A stretch of DNA of 64,000 nucleotides from Antedon mediterranea (taxonomy: Eukaryota > Animalia > Echinodermata). The DNA is taken from contig NC_092679.1 in the NCBI RefSeq assembly GCF_964355755.1, positions 16,847,432 through 16,911,431 of the forward strand, given 5' to 3'. Positions 7,078-38,100 of the stretch are shown in pieces (positions within the stretch are counted from its first letter, which is position 1; each line of letters opens with the position of its first letter). The notes under the pieces were generated by a model, which was not told the origin of the DNA, made no database searches, and saw only the letters and a program-made list of their open reading frames with translations. The position numbers and the translations under genes were made by a program.

Positions 7078-9745
7078 CAATCACAATATCAAATATGATC
7101 AGTGTAGTCAAAATTTGATAACTTAGCATGAATCTTTTAATATCTACATCATCAATAATTAATATTAATATAAATCTACATCACAATGTTGGATATGATC
7201 TTTGTAGTCAAAATTTGATAACTGAGCACGCATCTTTTAATAACTACCTTATCAATAACTATTAATAATGTCCTATATCACAATGTACAGTAGGATATGA
7301 TCAGTGTTAGTCATAATTTGATAACTGAGCACGCATCTTTTAATATCTACCTCATCAATAATTAATATTAGTATCATATATCACATTGTTCGATATGATC
7401 AGTGAAGTCAGAATTTGATAACTGAGCACGCATCTTTTAATATATACCTTATCAATGACTATTAATAATATCCTATATCACAATGTTGGATATGATTAGT
7501 GATTAGATAAATGAGCACGCATCTTTCAATATCTATTTCATCAATAATTATTTGTATTTTGTATTTGTATTTTTGTATTTGTATTATAATAATTATTATT
7601 AATAATTTATATCACATTGTTCGATATGATCAGTGTAGTCATATTTGATAACTGAGCACGCATCTTTCAATATCTATTTCATCAATAATTATTTGTATTT
7701 TGTATTTGTATTTTTGTATTTGTATTATAATAATTATTATTAATAATTTATATCACATTGTTCGATATGATCAGTGTAGTCATATTTGATAACTGAGCAC
7801 GCATCTTTCAATATCTATTTCATCAATAATTATTTGTATTTTGTATTTGTATTTTTGTATTTGTATTATAATAATTATTATTAATAATTTATATCACATT
7901 GTTCGATATGATCAGTGTAGTCATAATTTGATAACTGAGCACGCATCTTTCAATATCTATTTCATCAATAATTATTTGTATTTTGTATTTGTATTTTTGT
8001 ATTTGTATTATAATAATTATTATTAATAATTTATATCACATTGTTCAATATGATCAGTGTAGTCATAATTTGATAACTGAGCACGCATCTTTCAATATCT
8101 ATTTCATCAATAATTATTTGTATTTTGTATTTGTATTTTGGTATTTGTATTATAATAATTATTATTAATATTATATCACATTGTTCAATATGATCAGTGT
8201 AGTCATAATTTGATAACTGAGCACGCATCTTTCAATATCTATTTCATCAATAATTATTTGTATTTTGTATTTGTATTTTGGTATTTGTATTATAATAATT
8301 ATTATTAATATTATATCACATTGTTGGATATGATCAGTGTAGTCATAATTTGATAACTGAGCACGCATCTTTCAATATCTATTTCATCAATAATTATTAT
8401 TAATAATTTATATCACATTGTTCAATATGATCAGTGTAGTCATAATTTGATAACTGAGCACGCATCTTTCAATATCTATTTCATCAATAATTATTTGTAT
8501 TTTGTATTTGTATTTTGGTATTTGTATTATAATAATTATTATTAATATTATATCACATTGTTGGATATGATCAGTGTAGTCATAATTTGATAAATGAGCA
8601 CGCATCTTTCAATATCTATTTCATCAATAATTATTTGTATTTTGTATTTGTATTTTTGTATTTGTATTATAATAATTATTATTAATAATTTATATCACAT
8701 TGTTCGATATGATCAGTGTAGTCATATTTGATAACTGAGCACGCATCTTTCAATATCTATTTCATCAATAATTATTATTAATAATTTATATCACATTGCT
8801 GGATATGATCAGTGTAGTCATAATTTGATAACTGAGCATACATCTTTAAAAATCTACCTCATTAATAATTAATATTAATAATCTATATCACACTGTTGGA
8901 TATGATCTGTTTAGTTTTTTAATATCTACCTTATCAATAACTATTAATAATATCCTATATCACAATGTTGGATATGATCAGTGTAGTCATAGTTTGATAA
9001 CTGTGAGCATACATATTTTAATATCTACCTCATCAATAATTATTATTAATAATCTATATCACAATGTTGGATATGATTAGTGTAGTCATAATTTGATAAC
9101 TGAGCACGCATCTTTCAATATCTATTTCATCAATAATTATTATTAATAATTTATATCACATTGTTGGATATGATCAGTGTAGTCATACAGTAATTTGATA
9201 ACTGAGCAAAAATCTTTTAATATCTACCTCATCAATAATTAATATTAATAATCTATATCACATTGTTCGATATGATCAGTGTAGTCATAATTTGATAACT
9301 GAGCACGCATCTTTCAATATCTACCTCATCAATAATTAATATTAATATCATATATCACATTGTTCGATATGATCAGTGTAGTCATAATTTGATAACTGAG
9401 CACGCATCTTTTAAAATCTACCTCATCAATAATTAATATTAATAATCATATCGCATTGTTCAATATGATCAGTGTAGTCATAAATTGATAACTGAGCAAA
9501 AATCTTTTAATATCTGCATCATCAATTAATATTAATAATCTATATCAAACTGTTGGATATGATCTGTTTAGTTTTTTAATATCTACCTTTTCCAAAATAA
9601 TATTCTATATCACAATGTTGGATATGATCAGTGTAATCATAGTTTGAACTACCTCAACAATAATTAATATTAATTGTCTATATACCAATATCAAATATCA
9701 GTGTAGGCCTAGTCATTTGATAACTGAGCATGCATCATTTTATAT
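7078..9745 (+). repeat. Tandem array of about 97-bp satellite; central units lengthened to about 140 bp
   Basis: Repeating core ATATCACATTGTTGGATATGATCAGTGTAGTCATAATTTGATAACTGAGCACGCATCTTT. Units at about 7510-8700 carry an added (TTGTATTT)n block. Confidence 0.95.
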
Positions 9746-26100: not shown

Positions 26101-29100
26101 ATAATCCGGTGAATATTGTAGTGAGTAAAATATTGTACTCTAAAATACGCGCGTGTTTGTTGTGGCGTTTTCCGTTAAATACATTAATGCACCCTATCAG
26201 CGAATGGTACGTTCCATATTTTGAACACGTTGTTTAGTTTTCCTCGCTCGAGTTCGACCGGCTCGACGCGAGATGTGTGACAGCAGCGATGTCGGAGATT
26301 GACATGTCCTTTTCCGTCGTAGAATATCTGGTTTTACACATTAATTTAACAACTTAAAATTGATGTAATGTGCGGAAGATTTATTATGCAAGTATACAAT
26401 GCAAATGCGTTAGGTTAAAATGTACCGAGGAAATTTATTAAGCTAATTTACCAACGTTACATTTGACTCTGTATACGGCGGCCGAAAGTCATTAACTGCG
26501 ACCGAAATACTTTAACGGAGCGACTACTGATCGCGAGTAAGCCGTGACTTGGCCTAAACTTTAGCTCCGTATTTCAATTTAATAACGTAATAATACGAAA
26601 AGAAAACAATTTTTATAATGTTATATATACTATTCAGGTAAACAATTAATTGTTTTAATTAACATTGATTATTTTAAATGAGTTTATTTTGACCCATACT
26701 GTGCGTTTGCCTTAAAAGAGCATATTTTACTTAGCAGCCCGGCTTAGATTTGGTGTCATAATCATATGGGCCTAAAATCTTGTTTTACGTATTCAAAAGT
26801 TATATATAATAGTATTTATGATTGAAATTATAAATATAAAGTATATTAAAATATTCTAATAATTATACTTACCGAAAATTAGTGTAAAAGAAAGGAAACA
26901 GTACACACCGTTTTTAACATACTTTTTCATTTTTTCTTTTTATAATTTTAAATTTCACCATTAAAACAATTTTTTTTTTTCATATACACATCTAAAATAT
27001 ATTTATTAATGAAATATACACTACATTCTAACAAGTACAAAAAAAAATTCAATGAATTAGTACAGTAGTTCAAAAGTTACAGATCATTGAAAAATAGCAG
27101 TTTTTTCATTTTTTTAGGGAATTCCAGCAAAAATGGGCGTTAAATGCTTTCCTACCACTTTGCGGACCAATAATTTAAAAAATAGGTTTCGTTGAGGCTC
27201 CAAAAAAAATAGAGTTGTACAGTCTATATCGTGCCTAGCTTACCTGGATAAACCAACATAAGCCTCTCTCTCCGACGAGAGGTAAACATTACGAAAAGAA
27301 GAACATTAATAACATTAATTTTTCCCCACCCCCGTCGGATAATGGATCAGTCCGCCACCAGTACGCCCTCAAGTGAGACACACCCACTTATCATCGTCAT
27401 CATTTCTTTTCGTAACGTCGTTGTGTACGTACGTCTTTTCTGAACACATTCCTGGAATTCCTGAGGAATTTGCGATAAAGACTTTATACTGTAGACTGGA
27501 AGAGAAGAATAGAGCAAGAAAACGAAGCTAAGTGTAGTAGATCGTTATCTTGTGGTTGGATACGTTTAGAATCGTTACCCTTGGCTAGTTGCCAGGAGTT
27601 AAAATTTAGCGTTGTAAGCCGTTATCCAGTGTGTTTCACCTGGATAGAAATACTGGAAGATCTTTTGTTGTTCGTTAGGCTAGTGGGGAAAAGTAGGTCT
27701 GTTAGATCACCATGCCTAAGCAGGAGTGTGTTAAATGTAGGGGTCCCCGCTCTACCGTGAAGTGGGACCGCCACTTGGAGTGCATAAATTGCCGCACGTG
27801 TACCGAGTTGTCGCCGTGCGATGTTTGTGTCCGCTGGACACCGTCCAAGTTCAAATCGCTCACTAGGCCTAAAGAACGCACGGAAGCTGTACCACCTCCG
27901 GAGGTGGGTACCGCTGATACGGCAGGCCCTCCTGTCGTTGCGCCGGAAGTTAGCCTTCCAGATATGCCTGCACCGGCTGCGGCCTCTGCGGTTCCGGGGG
28001 TGAATGAGATTTCTCCGGGGTTACTGCAAGCCATTGTTGCAGCTGTGAGAGCTCTGCCGAGGGATGAGCCTGAGGTACCCTCTCAGATTAGACCTCCTCC
28101 CCAGATTCCATACATTGATGTTGGCCCACAGCAGACCTCGTTTTTCGATGGTTCGTCCGTCCGGCAAAGGGACTACGATAGTGACAGGACGATGGCCTCG
28201 CTCTCTGACGATGATAGAGATAGCTTACGAGAGCAGGCCGGGCCAGGGGAGGAAGGTCTGCAGGCGCTAGTTATGCGGACGGTCCCCGCGGTGCTGTCCT
28301 TTCTCGGCGTCGATTTCACGTATCGCGAGCCTAAACATACTCCTTCGTCTAAGCGGTTTTCCACTTTTGGCGTACGCACGCCCTTTAAGAAGGTATCTTC
28401 GTGCCCGGTTACGCCTCTCGATCCAGAACTTGTGGAACGTGTGGAGCTGATCGCTAAGGAGTCCAAGATTCGTAGGCCTATGCCTTATAGCCTGTCATCG
28501 GCTTTTCCGGTGCCGCAGAAACAATTCGAACTGTACATCGCGGCGCCGAGCGTCCCGGAGGCAGCGAAGGAACGGGTCCGTGAGGACCAGAACCTGGACC
28601 CGTCCAGGACTAATTTTTTGAAGCCTTCGGAATCCCGCACAGAGGACGTCCTTACGTCCGTCGACAGGGCCGCACGCGAGACGCTTAGAGCCGCCTCTAT
28701 GGCCGGGTACTTGCTATCCTTTCTGGCTGATCCAGAACATCCGCCCCAGGGCGATTCGGACGTGATAGCTCTACTACAGCAGATCATGGGCCTGGTTGTT
28801 GATCAACAGGCAACGATCTCATTATCTGCGGCCGCGGCCCGTCGCGTTAACGTCTTGGGTGCAACTGACATCGCACCGACCGATTTCCGTAGGTTTACTA
28901 CGTCTGACTCCTTCGGGGCGCAGGACTTGTTCTTTGGCTCCTTCTCACAGAAGGAAGATAAATGGGCCCGTGAGAGGGAAGCTCGTCGGGAGACAAGAGC
29001 GCGCTTCCCGCAAAAACGCCGAGCTAGCAATTCACGCTCAAGGACAGCCGCACGACCGCCGCCTGCCCCTGCTGCTCCTCAGCAGATGCAGCCTCCCCCG

Positions 29101-32100
29101 CCGCCACCGGCTCAGCCTATGCAAAGTCAGGCTTCTACATCAAGACAGGCTTCACACCCCCCTCGCGGAATGCGAAATAGGGGTGGCAAAGGCGCCACCA
29201 ACAGGAGTGGTCGCCGGTATTATAATGTGAAGCGCCGGTGACGGCTTGGGGGCGCCCGTCCCTCCAAGCGAGGGCGGGCAGGTGGGGGGTCGCTTGAAAC
29301 GGTTTTCACGGGTTTGGGAGACCCTGACCACAGACAGATGGGTTCTCTCCACCGTGACACACGGGTATCGTATCGAATTCTCGAGCCCTCCGGTGAGCGG
29401 AGGTGCCCGGCACACGAGGATTCCGTCAGAGCCGGAAAAGAGTCAAGCGCTCATGACGGGCCTCGAAGCACTGCTCCAGAAAGGAGCTGTGGTGCATGTT
29501 CAAAAAGAACAACTTACGATCCCGGGACACGAATCCACCGTTTTCCTCGCCCAGAAAAAATCGGGCGATTGGCGACCCATCCTAAACCTCAAAAGTCTGA
29601 ACAAGCGGTACATTCGGCCCCGCAGGTTCAGGATGGAGACTGTCTCATCTATCCTGTTGGGGCTAAGACGAGGGGACTGGGCAGCCACAATAGACTTGAA
29701 AGACGCGTACTTTCACGTGCCTATTGCGCAAGAACACCAGAGTTGGCTGCGCTTCCGCATTCACGATCAGGTATACCAATTCGTAGCTCTGCCGTTCGGC
29801 CTCTCAACGGCCCCACGAGTGTTTACTCGTCTAGTGAGAACCCTGGCGGCGTTCTTTCATCAACACGGCATCAGAGTGTTCATGTACTTAGACGATTGGT
29901 TGATCGTGGCCCAGTCCAGGGACCAGCTGCTGAGCAGCTTATCTTTTGTCCGCCTCGTGACGGAACAAGCAGGGTTCATAATAAACGAGGAGAAGTCATG
30001 TCTTCTCCCTTCTCAGAACCCTCTGTATCTCGGAGCCCAAATAAATTTGGTTACGGGCCGTGCGTGCCCATCCATCGAGCGTGTGGCCAAGGCAAGAACT
30101 GCAGTGCTACATCTTATCAATGCTCAGGCTCCGACGGCGTACGACTGGCTACGCACCTTGGGGTCACTGGCCAGCTTCGTCGCCCTCGTTCCGTTCTGCC
30201 GGTTAAGGATGCGGCCTCTACATCTGCACCTTCTGGCAGCATACCGCCCAAGATCAGACTCTCTACACAAGGTGGTTCCAACGAATGCGTTCATTATCTC
30301 GCATCTCGAATGGTGGCTCGTGGAAGACAGGTTACTTGTGGGCACACCTATACAAAGGTCAATTCCGGAGGTCCGTGTGGAAACGGACGCATCCGAAGTA
30401 GGCTGGGGCGGTCACATACCGTCTCCGGACATTCGCGTCTCCGGCCTCTGGTCGCCCGAGGAGACGCGCGCCCACATCAACCTGCTCGAACTTTGGGCAG
30501 TCGAGCGCTCATTGGAGGCTCTTCTTCCCCATCTGGCAAATCGCCATGTTCTCGTCAATTCCGACAACACAACCGTCGTGGCATACATAAACAGGCAAGG
30601 GGGTACACGGTCCCCCACGCTATGTTGCCACACGTGGACGTTGCTAATGTGGTGTATAAGACACAACATCCAACTGTCAGCGGCCCACATTGCGGGTCGT
30701 CTGAACATAGTGGCGGACGCACTGTCCCGTCCACTTCTACGTCCTACGGAATGGCGTCTTCTTCCAATAATCGCCACCCAGATCTTCAACCACTTTGGGC
30801 GGCCCCATGTAGATCTGTTTGCGACGTCAGGCAACACGCAGCTCCCGACGTTCTGCAGTCGATATCGGGATGCACATGCGTGGGCGGTGGATGCCCTGTC
30901 CATACCATGGGACAACCTTTGGGCATATGCCTTTCCACCGATTTCAATACTGCCACTGGTCCTGACGCACATTCAGCGCCATCAATGCCGAGTCCTACTA
31001 ATAGCGCCGTATTGGCCCAGGCAGCCGTGGTTTCCACTGCTTCTAGGCCTTCTGTACGATCAGCCGTTACGTCTTCCGATTCGGAACGACTTGCTGACGC
31101 AGGGCCGAGCTCGGTTTGCTCTACCGAACCTCATATCCCTCGACCTGACTGTATGGCCATTGTCAGGGATCGTTTCAGAGACTCAGGCATTCCAGATGGT
31201 CCGGCCGCCCTCGCGGCGAAATCCCGACGGGAATCCACTCTTGCTGTCTACAATAGCCGATTAAAACACTTTTTCGAATGGTGCAAGCGCCAGAAGACCG
31301 ACCCTATGAAAGTGACTTTGGGCCAGGTCTGCGCTTTCCTACATTACCTGTTTGAGTCAGGTCTGCAGGTTCGCACCGTATCCGGCTATCGGTCTGCCTT
31401 GGCTGCAGTAATTCCGAATTTTAAAGACGGCTCGACCATCTCTTCATCCCCTGCAATTTCCAGTTTGCTTCGCGGGATGTTTCGAGAACGGCCTCCTACT
31501 AAGGCCCTGATTCCACGTTGGGACGTCAATGTCGTCCTAGCCGCTCTTATGCGTCCACCCTTTGAGCCCCTGAGTAGGGCATCACTTTACAACCTGACTC
31601 TCAAAACTGCCTTTTTGATTGCACTAGCCTCGTGCAAGCGCAGAGGTGAACTGCATGCTCTTTCTCTGGAGCCAGGGCACATCAGGTTTGAACGGGGTGG
31701 CGCGCGGTTGGTTTTTAGAAAAGATTTCCTTGCAAAATCTCAGACATTGAACTTCTCGCCGCCGACTGTGTTTATTCCCACCATTGCTGCATATTCAGGG
31801 GTTGAGGAAGACAGACTTTGGTGCCCGGTGCGGGCACTAAAGTTTTACATCAAACGCACAGAGTCCATTCGGGTCTCAGCGTCACATCTGTTCGTATCGA
31901 CAGTTGCACCCTTCCGACCGGCTGCTCGGTCGACGCTGGCAAACTGGGTCGTGGCAGCCATCCGGGCTGGTTACGACTCCACAGATACGCCTCCTCCGGC
32001 ACATATGCACCAAGTGCGTGGCATAGCCGCTTCATGGGCGCTGTTTGCTGGGGTGCCCCTTCCAGACATCCTGCAAGCGGCATGGTGGCGATCACAGTCC

Positions 32101-35100
32101 ACCTTCACATCCCACTACCTGTCGGATACCTCCGCAAACCAGTCTACGGTGGCGGCTTTAATCTTGAAGCCCAGACACTAGGTATGTATGACAATGTTTA
32201 CCTTGCCTCCCGCCTCCGACTAGACTCTAGTCCGGTGCTACACTGGCTTATGTTGGTTTATCCAGGTAAGCTAGGCACGATATAGACTACACAAACCAAC
32301 AGTGGTGTTGGTAGTCTATGAGTGCCGCTTACCTGGATAAACGCCCTCCCTACCGTCCCCTCAGGCAGGTGGTCTTGAGAAATGATGACGATGATAAGTG
32401 GGTGTGTCTCACTTGAGGGCGTACTGGTGGCGGACTGATCCATTATCCGACGGGGGTGGGGAAAAATTAATGTTATTAATGTTCTTCTTTTCGTAATGTT
32501 TACCTCTCGTCGGAGAGAGAGGCTTATGTTGGTTTATCCAGGTAAGCGGCACTCATAGACTACCAACACCACTGTTGGTTTGTGTAACTCTGTGATATCT
32601 ATAGGTTTAACAAAATTCAAAACTTTTAACTAATTATTGTAAAAGTTATAACCTTTTAAAAATGCTTCCAATTTCAACTGCAAAAAACACCATTTTTAGG
32701 CAAAAAATCGTATATTTTTTTACCACTTTAAATAACCATAACTTTAGAACGGGTAATCGGATTTCAATCATTTAAATCGCAAAATGCTAATTACATTAAG
32801 TTCTTTATGGTTAACTGAAAGAAAATGTAAAAAAATTAATCTGAATTTTTTCATTGGGATACCTACTTGTAATAAGACTTTGTTTATGTAGAACATCTTG
32901 TGATGTTTGTGTTGTTTACAGGATTCCCACCTTTAAGAAAGATAGTGAATGAATTTATCCTTGTAAATTCACCTAAATATAAAAAAAAACTTTTTATTAA
33001 AAATGGAAGTGGCAATTCATTGAATAGAACAATCTTTCAACGTATAAAAATATCCTTCCCATTCATAAACTATGACATTGCTAGAAAAGAAATAGACTAT
33101 AAGAATTACAAAACGAATTACTCTTTAGTGTTCTCAATTTAGTTTCTGTTTTTGTATCAAAAGATCAGCCCCTTTTTTTGTGTTTTTTTTATGGGCATTT
33201 TATCACAATAATATTATTTTCACTTGGCAAGGGCATAATTTGAGATAAAATCCTGAAAAAGTCAAAAATACAAATTGATATAAATCGCCTTCATACAATC
33301 AAATGTGCAATCTTATCATGAAAGCTATTTTTACCGTTGAACAGTGAAATTTCACTTGTGTAAAACAGAAAGTACTCGTCGGTACTTCTAATATTTTGGC
33401 AACTTATTCAATGTAGTCGTGACACCCCTTTGATAACCTGTACGTTTAGATATGCACTTAAATCTGAACTATAAATCATTTTAGTATCCTGTTTTTCTTT
33501 CTTTTTCTATTCAATGATAAGTTGGTATTCTTATTATGTACCTTTACTTGGCATTAATGTCATTTTTAATACCCTAAAAAATTCAGATGTACTGTAAGCT
33601 CACCCTGAGTTTTGATTAATTAATTTTACGCACACACAGGAGCACACGGTTTCATAGACAGTATGAAATTGGTATTAAACGTGGTTCCCACTAGTACGTC
33701 AAGCAACGTAAGAAAATGCCCTTCAAATAATTGTGTTTTCCCCTGCGTCAGAAAATCAAAACCTGATTGTTGTACTTCAACATTGCCGTAGACTTTAACC
33801 TGGTTTACTCCACATACTTTTGAGTACGTGTTGTACTACTGTATTTTTCCACTGTTCGTTTGCGTTGCTGCATGAAATCAAACTGATTTGATTTCTTGTA
33901 GCGATGTTTTGCAGCACTGTTGCGTCATTCGTTCCCACTTGTGATTGCGCAAATATAGCACTCTGCGTCGATACGTCACTGCATTGTGTTCTAGTGGGAA
34001 TCACACTTTAGACTTACACATTGTTTTCAAGAACACAATTTTGTACAATTGCTAAAAATATTATCTGTTGATATAAGTTTGCGGTACACCACGTATGTCG
34101 ACGTTTCGATCAATATGCTTTGATCGTCCTCAGGAGTGTGAATGCAGAAAGTCATGTACCGCAAACTTTTGATTTTGATTTTTGCCATGCAAATTACTAA
34201 ATAAATGCGTGAATCTCACAAAAATAAATGCATATTTAGTTCAATTATGAGATTAAAAACAAGCAGAACTTCCTTTTGTATAGAAACTGCTATCTTGCTT
34301 ATGTTTACATTTCATTTTATAGTTGTCAGTTTCTCCCTTTATTTAAATTAATTATTTATTTTGCACGGATTGGTAAACTACTTTTAATTCCTGAGCTCAC
34401 GTTCATTCTGTTTAATTAAGATACTAATCACTTAGTAGGAAAGATGCGATATTGATTAATATTTGGTTTGATGTTTTATTCATCTTTTTCATCATTTTTC
34501 ATATTAATTTATGACATGTTTTGTACGGAATCTAAATTAAAGTTAAATTACGATTTTCTTGCTACCAGATTCCGGCTTCAGTCTGAATGTTTAGACTTAG
34601 ACTCGCGCTTATTTGATCAGATTTATAAAACAAATAAATTAATACAATTAATAGAATCCAGTAATAGGTTGTTGACAGATTTGTTTATATTATGTTAATT
34701 AGGCAAGATAAAAGAATACCTAACCAGTTACCCGAGGGCGTATTAGATAATGTTCTTTCGTCGTTTGAATTACTTGGAAGTGAAAACGTTGAAGAAACCG
34801 AAAATGGTGACCTAGAAGATGGCGGTACAGCAGATGACGAGGCTGATGATAGTATGAACAAGAATATGGCAACTATTATTAAAAGGAAAAAGGTAATTTA
34901 ATTTTTTATAATAATTGTTACATAATATACATACTACAAGAGAAAATGTCTGTATGTATCGTTTTTTTAAAATAATAATATTTTTTGTTTGTATAGTGCC
35001 ATTCCAACGATCATTGATCATGGCGTAGACTTGCCCAAGTCTGTAGTTATTGTTTTTTTTATGTTAGTCCACCAGTCGGCTTTTTGATGTTTGTCTGAAA

Positions 35101-38100
35101 ACTACAAGTTTACAACAAGCTCAAGTAGTATACGTATGGAACACCATTTGTGCCAAAATATTTATCTTTTTACTAATATTAAGTCAAAACTCCGTCTAGA
35201 ACCTAGATTAAGCTCTAGGCCTAGCTGTGAATAGGTTGGTGCTGTATCTTAGGTTAATGCCTAACATTGCAGTGCAATATAAAAAGTAGGGCTAACATCT
35301 TAAATACTGCATCCGTTCACAATTTATAATTTCTAAAAAAAAGAACAATCAATATTTACTCACAAAAACATTGTGATTATAATGTGTAGCATTATTAACT
35401 GCTTTTGGTCATTTCAATCTACTTCCTTTGACAGCAAAAATTAGAAACTTGATTGTTCCTTAGATAAGTTTGAGGAGGCAGCCAAACATTTAACAGGGAC
35501 CTTAAGCGAAACGAGATGGCCCTGACAAGTGCCGATCTTACACTTTTCTTATCAGGAACGAGTGGAAATGACGCGCATTTGTTTTATAATTAGAAACTAT
35601 TAGTAAAGTATCTAATTTCAAACTTTAGTTTTTCATTTGATTTTTTCTGGACTTGTTGTACTTGTACCTTTAAAAACAGTGGGTGATGATTGTTTATTTT
35701 ATAAGTGACCATACAATGAGTGTTTAGAGAAATGTTACTGGAGAAACAATATAAGGTAAGTCATAGGGTAATATATAAGTAACTATTTTCAGTTTATGTC
35801 ATCTATATTACGGTGATTTAATTAAATATGTTAGCAATTAGTTGCTAATTGTCAAAACACGACAGCGATGATTACGGCTGCAACATTATGGGAGGCTGTT
35901 TCCAGATGTGTTTGATCCAAAACATTACTAGGGTAATAATGTGAAGCGCTTAGATGCTTTGTGCATTAAGCTCTATAAAAGGAACGACGTATTATTAATT
36001 ATTATTATTATTAAATCATGTTAAATTTATTTTGTTCAAAAAATCAGCATGTAAATCTAAATTATTATTTGGATGCATGTTTTTTTTTTTAAATATAACT
36101 ACAGTAGAAATATTTAATATTAATTCATTATTATAAAATACAGAATTGGTAATTATTATTTTACCTTAATATGCTCAATGTTTCGTTATAAATGTTAATA
36201 CTAAATATTAAATAATGCAGTAAAATGCTATAAAATAAATATTTAATTTTGTCATATTAAATCAATGTTAAATAGTGAGATTTTTTTATTGTTGTCCAAT
36301 CTATATTGGGTTAAAAATAATCATGATGAAACGCTACATTAAACATTTAATCCTGTCTGTAGGCTAATGAAAGTTGATGTGGCCCTTCTGTACACCCCTG
36401 ATAGGCACACGTTTCACCCCTGTAACAGGAACTAACTCTAATTCAATTTTCATTATTTTGATAAGAGCTGGCTAAAGTACCTCTGTTTTGTCTTAAAAAG
36501 TTGACTGCGCTGTACTCTTAGTAATAATAACAACTTGTTTTTATTTTAATTATTTGGCACTTTTTGTATATTAATTTTTTAAAAGAAATATATATCTTTA
36601 CACTTGACTCCTACTGGAATACTGGAAAAAAATATTTTTTTCTCCCTGACATCAGTACTTTTGTGCCAATCATTTTCATTTTTCAGAAAATAGAACTGAA
36701 AAATTGGTTTTTGTTTTTGTTTTTTTAAAGACAAAGAGAGAGACGTTCTAATCTAAATCATGATCATGAGAAAAAACAATTGAAATATCTGCCAAAGTGA
36801 AAAAAAAAATTGCTTAATTTTCTTGATATATGCACTGATTATTAAACTACTATGGCTCAAAAACACTTTTAAAATTTAAATCTCAAAAGAGATCCATAAA
36901 TATTTATTGACTTAAAGGTAAATGTCACTTGAGTGTGATTGTTATGGCCACAGTGCTATCATGGTATTTTAAAATCAGATTTTAAATAATTTTCCCTCTT
37001 TTTCTTTGCAGCCTATTCTTGGGAACGAAAGCATGGTGGAAGATGTTGTCACAGATCCAGACACGGAAGAGGCACTGGCAGAGTTTGACTTCCTTGTGGC
37101 AGAGGGCGGCGAGGGAGCTGGAGAAGCACGCACCACTGGCGACGGTACTGAATGGCTAGGTAGTAAATTAGCAAACAAACTAACACAGTGGTCGTTGTGT
37201 AAGAGCTACAGTGGCGTCCTCATTGACAATCGTGTAATTGTATGACCAATTGACGTAATGTCTGTGTTGGGTGTTCAATCTTCTGCTTGCCCTCCCTCCT
37301 TTATTCCTTCATTTTCTATTGTCCTAGCATCTTGACATGTTATCTGTATATCAATATTTCCTACAGTCCGTAGAAAAGTATTTGATAAAAGATTGTTTAA
37401 CTTTGATTAACAAAAAACAGTATTTAGAAACTAATAGGTTTTGATCTCTAATCTAACTATATTAGAGGACTAGTAGATGATTTATTTAAAGGTAGTCCCA
37501 TAGCATCTATGTATGAACTGTGGCAGGTCAAAATGCTTTGATGTCTCCATGCACTTAAATTAAATGAAATTTCCATCCTACAATACATGCATATTTGACA
37601 ATTAGACAAGATTTTCTTGTGAAGGGGAATACACCAACTGTATGCCACTGTATCTACAGCACATATAATAGTCAATAGGAAACACAAACTCTACTCCAAT
37701 CAATTTGCACTATGCTTTAAGCTCTGTCTACACTATCAAAAAAGTGTGATATGTTCAAGTATGGTAGTGGCATGCCCAAATATGGTAGTGATATTGATAA
37801 ATATGGTATTAATATGACATCATCATCATTAAATGGGCACATCATATTTTGTTGTTCCATAAAGTTTGATAGTGTAAACAGAGCTTTAGTTTATAATCCC
37901 ATATAGTAGAACACCTGTTAATGGAACACTTTAGGGACCCAACAAATTGTCTCCGTAATAATAGGGTGTTCCCTGAATAGGGGTGTCCCAAAGAAGGGGA
38001 GTCTACTGTATTAACAGCCACGTTTAAAACTTTCATGATCGATAGAAATGGCTAGCTCATATGAATTTAAAAATAGAATATTTCCATTTGCATGACAAAT

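Follow-up and report, generated by a model that had tools for sequence, protein, structure and literature searches.

A gag stop codon as a candidate three-way decoding site in a DIRS1-like retrotransposon of Antedon mediterranea

The DIRS1-like elements share inverted terminal repeats, an internal complementary region, a gag gene, a reverse transcriptase/RNase H (RT) gene, and a recombinase frame that overlaps pol (PMC3266345, PMC5633606, PMC9210276). A long overlap between pol and the recombinase is known in half of the 28 described elements (PMC3266345). The available sections of these three papers describe the overlap, and contain neither a translation route for the RT and the tyrosine recombinase (YR) nor a recoded gag stop; how these elements express both enzymes, and why approximately 2 kb of sequence codes twice, is left unexplained there. 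A review quoted in PMC13003380 has proposed a frameshift between the RT and the YR of the Ngaro elements. In the literature searched, which included sections of PMC7192593, PMC5633606, PMC3266345, and PMC9210276, no description was found of recoding at a DIRS1-like gag stop; the in-frame gag-YR layout may already have been noted elsewhere.

Type II readthrough, as found in the alphaviruses and a coltivirus, is defined by the hexanucleotides UGACGG and UGACUA, with a 3' stem downstream (PMC13517186). In Moloney murine leukaemia virus, the gag UAG is followed by a spacer and a G-C-rich H-type pseudoknot (PMC13517186), and in the Candida retrotransposon Tca2, the gag UGA precedes a predicted pseudoknot, with pol being reached in frame through the stop. 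The Tca2 junction alone gave no readthrough in yeast reporters (PMC2194720), which calls for caution over the recoding proposed here. In antizyme and release factor 2, a shift-prone codon stands directly before UGA-C (UCC-UGA, CUU-UGA), known +1 sites being found among the codons UCC, UUU, CUU, and CCC (PMC5009743).

The gag junction of the A. mediterranea element contains UGACGG, and UGACUA is present in 19 of the 57 related junctions described below. Counted from the stop-codon U, its predicted helix starts at +16, the position given for Sindbis virus (PMC13517186). Unlike in the type II viruses, the product of readthrough would be a recombinase fusion that traverses the whole RT gene out of its reading frame; a +1 product would be required as well. 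The succession of gag stop, spacer, and G-C-rich H-type pseudoknot is that of the Moloney virus, but the spacer is of 12 nt rather than 8, the stop is UGA rather than UAG-G, pol lies +1 to gag rather than in its frame, and the pseudoknot is not conserved across the relatives. The likeness to Tca2 lies in the gag UGA and the predicted pseudoknot behind it. A shift-prone codon directly before UGA-C, as in antizyme and release factor 2, occurs here as UCC-UGA in 8/57 relatives and as CUU-UGA in 2/57, whereas the CGG-UGA of the present element is not a known site in that system, in which there is no readthrough product, and the antizyme pseudoknot begins 3 nt after the site (PMC5009743).

The element and its overlapping frames

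The window is the whole 64,000-nt stretch that was analyzed (contig NC_092679.1, positions 16,847,432 to 16,911,431). It contains a GC-rich island of 5.4 kb, in AT-rich surroundings, which carries the junction. As judged from its sequence, this island is an intact DIRS1-like retrotransposon, and its named homologues, which are approximately 50% identical, are from echinoderms. Its features are as follows:

27238–27407, plus strand: left inverted terminal repeat, 170 nt, 100% complementary to 32378–32547; left terminus at about 27221.
27712–29241, plus strand: gag-like open reading frame of 509 codons, with a Cys-rich N-terminus and an Arg/Gly-rich C-terminus, ending in UGA.
29231–31264, plus strand: RT/RNase H/methyltransferase-like frame, +1 to gag.
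29236–29244, plus strand: candidate recoding site, formed by CGG (a codon of the form XYY, with identical second and third bases), UGA, and CGG; UGACGG is a type II readthrough hexanucleotide.
29242–32181, plus strand: tyrosine recombinase frame, in the gag frame, open for 979 codons from the stop and overlapping all of the RT.
32245–32342, plus strand: internal complementary region, left and right halves, complementary to 27215–27264 and 32532–32586.
32378–32586, plus strand: right inverted terminal repeat (32378–32547) and right extension, with joints and loose ends at 32586–32587 in related runs.

The inverted terminal repeats and the internal complementary region, which matches both termini, are accompanied by an RT/RNase H frame (RVT_1, E 6e-23; RNase H, E 0.0035) and by a tyrosine recombinase at the 3' end of the frame that overlaps pol. 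The latter is recognized by an integrase SAM-like domain (PF02899, E 4e-4) and a Phage_integrase domain (PF00589, E 3e-4), both of which narrowly miss the Pfam cut-offs, and a search of the PDB sequences with the recombinase part returned no informative match. For a putative methyltransferase domain after the RNase H, there is a weak Dam match, below the cut-off (E 0.31). The gag-like frame has no Pfam hit, and is named from its position.

The gag UGA occupies positions 29239–29241. The conserved VGGRL start of the RT is found at 29282, and the first AUG in its frame lies 57 codons further on. In the window, a closure of the RT frame lies 11 nt upstream of the gag stop, and this +1 frame is thus reachable only at the stop. 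An AUG-UGA in the RT frame, at 29225–29230, closes this frame and confines entry to the RT to the last few gag codons.

The stop codon in related junctions

A degenerate pattern for the conserved N-terminus of the RT recovered 87 metagenome loci, making 88 with the window; viral contigs and prokaryotic genomes yielded no loci. The junction filter specified an open gag frame and a single stop, followed by an open frame, 16–118 nt upstream of VGGRL; 57 of the 88 loci passed, 28 failed, and three had no upstream stop in the available sequence. The removal of near-duplicates left 47, to which a further 10 of this type, either short or broken, were added by hand, giving the 57 distinct junctions considered here, with 10 near-duplicates, 14 separate-clade loci, some of which have gag fused in frame to the RT, four broken or odd loci, and the three without a stop being left out. 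The counts in the 47 alone are similar (XYY 33, UGA-C 33, UGA-CUA 18, UAA 0). The closest of these relatives to the window has approximately 50% RT identity.

Seven loci (L066, L074, L010, L023, L063, L030, and L058) belong to a separate clade in which the YR overlap is only partial, and in the first three of these, the RT frame is open for more than 1 kb upstream, as though gag were fused to the RT. In L045, gag is seemingly in frame with the RT across UAG-G, and the YR frame becomes open 127 nt ahead of VGGRL, an arrangement that is either a real rearrangement or an indel.

The gag stop is UGA in 48 of the 57 junctions, UAG in nine, and UAA in none, with UGA-C in 41. By comparison, among the stops that end the RT and YR frames in these loci, 20/55 are UAA and 2/55 are UGA-C. 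One or other of the type II hexanucleotides is present in 20/57 junctions, and five of the nine UAG junctions fit the type III hexanucleotides. In 31 of the 41 long loci, the gag frame also remains free of stops over 1950 nt of the RT, where 18–76 stops occur in the third frame; as the working set was selected for open frames, this count is based on all 41 loci with enough sequence. In six of the 23 complete loci, the first YR-frame AUG lies 115–427 codons after the stop, which indicates that its openness is maintained starting at the stop itself rather than at an AUG. In the remaining 17, such an AUG occurs within 42 codons, so reinitiation is possible for those loci. Taken together, these signals make it likely that readthrough occurs at the gag stop.

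There is no AUG in the RT frame before VGGRL in 20 of 53 loci. The codon before the gag stop has the form XYY in 41/57 junctions, in comparison with 280 of 1131 upstream codons (25%) and 13/55 of the other stops, and this bias survives the clustering of the sequences at 56% identity (16 of 25 clusters, p 4e-5). In 19/57 junctions, the codon is UCC, UUU, CUU, or CCC; the window, with CGG, has no known shift codon before its stop. Codons CGG and CAA re-pair poorly after a +1 slip, as would the CGG of the window, and full re-pairing is not enriched (at least two matches in 18/57, against a background of 24%), nor is a −2 slip favored (12/57, against 18%). XYY is absent from 16 of the 57 junctions, and among the 41 XYY codons there are 16 of the form xAA, which may reflect the context of readthrough.

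In 18 pairs of sequences, the differences at the three positions of the gag codons amount to 0.32/0.29/0.46 over the final 30 nt of gag; immediately past the stop, they are 0.45/0.35/0.41, and within the RT, 0.50/0.27/0.19. The most variable position thus shifts from that of the gag frame to that of the RT frame at the stop, as judged from some 140 sites per position near the stop. A +1 shift at the gag stop appears fairly probable on these grounds, at a somewhat lower level of confidence than readthrough.

RNA folds behind the stop

Three predicted elements of RNA structure follow the stop in the window:

29244–29269, plus strand: competing stem (29244–29252 with 29261–29269), a predicted minor fold, −15.5 kcal as a hairpin, pair probability 0.02.
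29254–29279, plus strand: main helix (S1), a candidate 3' stimulator, 12 nt after the stop, present in every predicted fold, pair probability 0.83.
29265–29296, plus strand: predicted pseudoknot stem (S2), its 3' arm falling on the RT-frame codons for Gly-Arg-Leu.

A previous sequence-only reading had named these pairings, and all of them are borne out at their coordinates: GCCCGUCCCU (29254–29263) pairs with AGGGCGGGC (29271–29279), the loop CAAGCG (29265–29270) is complementary to CGCUUG (29291–29296), and GCUUGGGGG (29244–29252) pairs with CCUCCAAGC (29261–29269). A register with no bulge is superior to the one that had been given, with S1 formed by 29254–29261 and 29272–29279 (8 bp, with one U-G pair), a first loop of 3 nt, S2 formed by 29265–29271 and 29290–29296 (7 bp), a second loop of 0 nt, and a third of 10 nt. 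Two interleaved stems with workable loops are therefore present, as in an H-type pseudoknot, at the level of prediction.

The pseudoknots were scored with a purpose-written enumerator, using Turner stacking values and approximate loop limits, with no loop energies. The candidate at the gag stop is the best in the coding region (440 windows on the plus strand and 440 on the minus), and its score was equalled by six of 2000 dinucleotide shuffles, and by 33 of 3000 when shuffling was restricted to the linker and left the RT codons intact, although these ranks need caution, given that the site was picked post hoc. The junction pseudoknot would appear to exceed chance moderately. Nested folding is ordinary, with z from −0.1 to −1.9 in five windows and +0.29 in another. 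The best nested fold of this stretch has −24 kcal/mol, and the pseudoknot stems total −32 before loop penalties, so energy does not decide between the two. A search of Rfam found nothing relevant, with a single match (E 3.1). The second-best pseudoknot candidate, at 31814, lies within the region coding for the recombinase only.

Position 29296 is A in related copies, in all contigs of two runs and at about half of the depth in two others (from contigs of 4 of 14 runs, and from 40 differences listed of 1010), and S2 loses its outer pair in these copies, being reduced to 6 bp. The 3' arm of S1 looks like a local duplicate of the VGG codons. The 10-mer GCGCCCGUCC (29252–29261) recurs unchanged in two other loci; its partner there is the VGGR codons, and in the window a nearer look-alike.

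Across the family, the junctions fold somewhat better than the controls, with a mean z of −1.08 (n = 47) against −0.44 (n = 216; p 0.004), and p 0.05 in comparison with upstream windows. Many are weakly structured, with a z below −2 in only 13/47, and the AT-rich relatives have little structure. Linkers pair better with the VGGRL codons of their own element than with VGGRL codons taken from the others (n = 53, p = 0.0003; five controls, p 0.12–0.65), in a comparison that ignores kinship; the linker of the window has no such preference (rank 0.47). Mean pairing is 0.19–0.28 at +2 to +7 (0.38–0.41 in shuffled sequences) and 0.40–0.52 at +10 to +23 (0.29–0.36).

None of the relatives can be aligned for the covariation check that had been suggested for the window. 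In a sister clade of six loci, a three-way junction is predicted, with a base stem that is 96% paired and has C-G, G-C, and A-U at one position, that is, a single compensatory pair, in a stem to which the linker of the window does not align. Stem S2 of the window uses as its 3' arm the Gly-Arg codons that are also used in this clade. In six loci (L077, L005, L016, L086, L082, and L065), UUU- or CUU-UGA-CUA precedes one or two hairpins that are predicted to be strong and whose sequences are unrelated.

A pseudoknot conserved in the family was rejected, being found in 8/57 relatives and 10/151 control windows. It is the arrangement of a spacer followed by a helix that looks conserved in these predictions, the pseudoknot being at most lineage-specific. 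A role of S1 as a stimulator of recoding is somewhat favored, and the closing of S1 and S2 into a pseudoknot in this lineage is given somewhat less than an even chance.

Proposed three-way decoding and its rivals

The preferred reading, which is given an even chance on the sequence signals, is that the gag stop of the DIRS1-like elements is decoded in three ways, by termination, by readthrough to the YR, and by a +1 shift to the RT. At a UGA that is slowly decoded, with a helix standing at the entrance of the mRNA channel, most ribosomes would terminate, yielding Gag; some would read through the UGA to produce Gag-YR across the open frame, and others would slip +1 at the stop to produce Gag-RT. 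The downstream helix S1 is predicted to slow termination. The competing 5' stem would be melted by the incoming ribosome, leaving S1, with or without S2, in which case there would be no switch, and kinetic competition at the slow stop would decide how ribosomes divide among the outcomes. Three-way decoding would explain why the YR frame is open over the whole RT gene. The fuller version, in which the stop sets the ratio of Gag to recombinase to reverse transcriptase, and the 3' RNA structure has been rebuilt repeatedly as a hairpin, a three-way junction, or a pseudoknot, falls just short of an even chance.

Recoding might also depend on the context of the stop alone, the helices being a lineage-specific by-product of a C-rich linker facing G-rich Gly-Gly codons, or being involved in packaging or reverse transcription. 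The ordinary z of the nested fold, the unconserved pseudoknot, the scant structure of the AT-rich relatives, and the similarity of the 3' arm of S1 to a VGG duplicate are consistent with this possibility, which is nevertheless judged unlikely, given that the best pseudoknot of 880 windows sits at the stop, and that the family has cognate pairing, a spacer-then-helix profile, and a compensatory pair in the sister clade. A different account dispenses with recoding, derives the RT and YR from spliced, internally initiated, or reinitiated messages, and leaves the open frames and the stop context to some other cause. It has a precedent in the junction promoter of Tca2 (PMC2194720), an AUG in the YR frame comes within about 45 codons in many loci, and one subclade has donor-like sites after the stop. 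These sites, GGTAAG or GGTGAG, lie 3–8 nt after the gag stop in nine loci, and may be mere Lys-Val codons of the RT frame. Among the 15 listed of 118 joints in the related runs, none is of the GT..AG type within the open reading frames, a result that has no bearing on splicing. No AG acceptor is conserved at any position near the stop or VGGRL (best 17/57), and the lack of an RT-frame AUG in 20/53 loci and the long open stretch before the YR-frame AUG in 6/23 also argue against this account, which does not predict the absence of UAA or the CUA and XYY biases, and is regarded as improbable.

The sequence-only reading had envisaged two mutually exclusive folds that separately favor readthrough and +1 shifting. 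Both outcomes are backed indirectly by the family-wide signals, but their steering by two alternative folds is unsupported, and a switch of this type is considered very improbable. Both stems are indeed present, and their stacking energies are close (−19.6 and −18.7). Only 2 nt separate the stop from the 5' stem, near the 3-nt spacing of the antizyme pseudoknot, so closeness to the stop alone does not exclude a role for it (PMC5009743), and, if shortened, this stem could combine with the core helix in a second pseudoknot. Exclusivity is only partly right, however, as the 5' stem is compatible with the core helix 29254–29260/29273–29279, and its pairing probability is about 2%, against 83% for the main helix. 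The relatives are also under-paired at +2 to +7, and approximately 11–12 nt past the A-site codon lie within the mRNA channel of the ribosome, where the 5' arm of the stem would be found during the decoding of the UGA (PMC13517186).

Were three-way decoding to hold, a single stop with readthrough and +1 products would answer the questions of both RT/YR expression and double coding, and the family would offer recoding biologists dozens of naturally occurring versions of a codon that is contested by termination, readthrough, and shifting.

The surroundings of the element have some features of their own. The element is located in a high-depth repeat (27211–27220 and 32587–32591), its target being a 14-bp palindrome, GAGTTGTACAACTC, as seen in an empty-site contig, and its termini differ from the usual NTT type. 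A short frame at 36973–37245 resembles a host coding exon. A tandem array of 97-bp units extends from 11993 to about 16200, with at least 44 overlapping matches, and has an inverted partial copy upstream, at 9190–9447.
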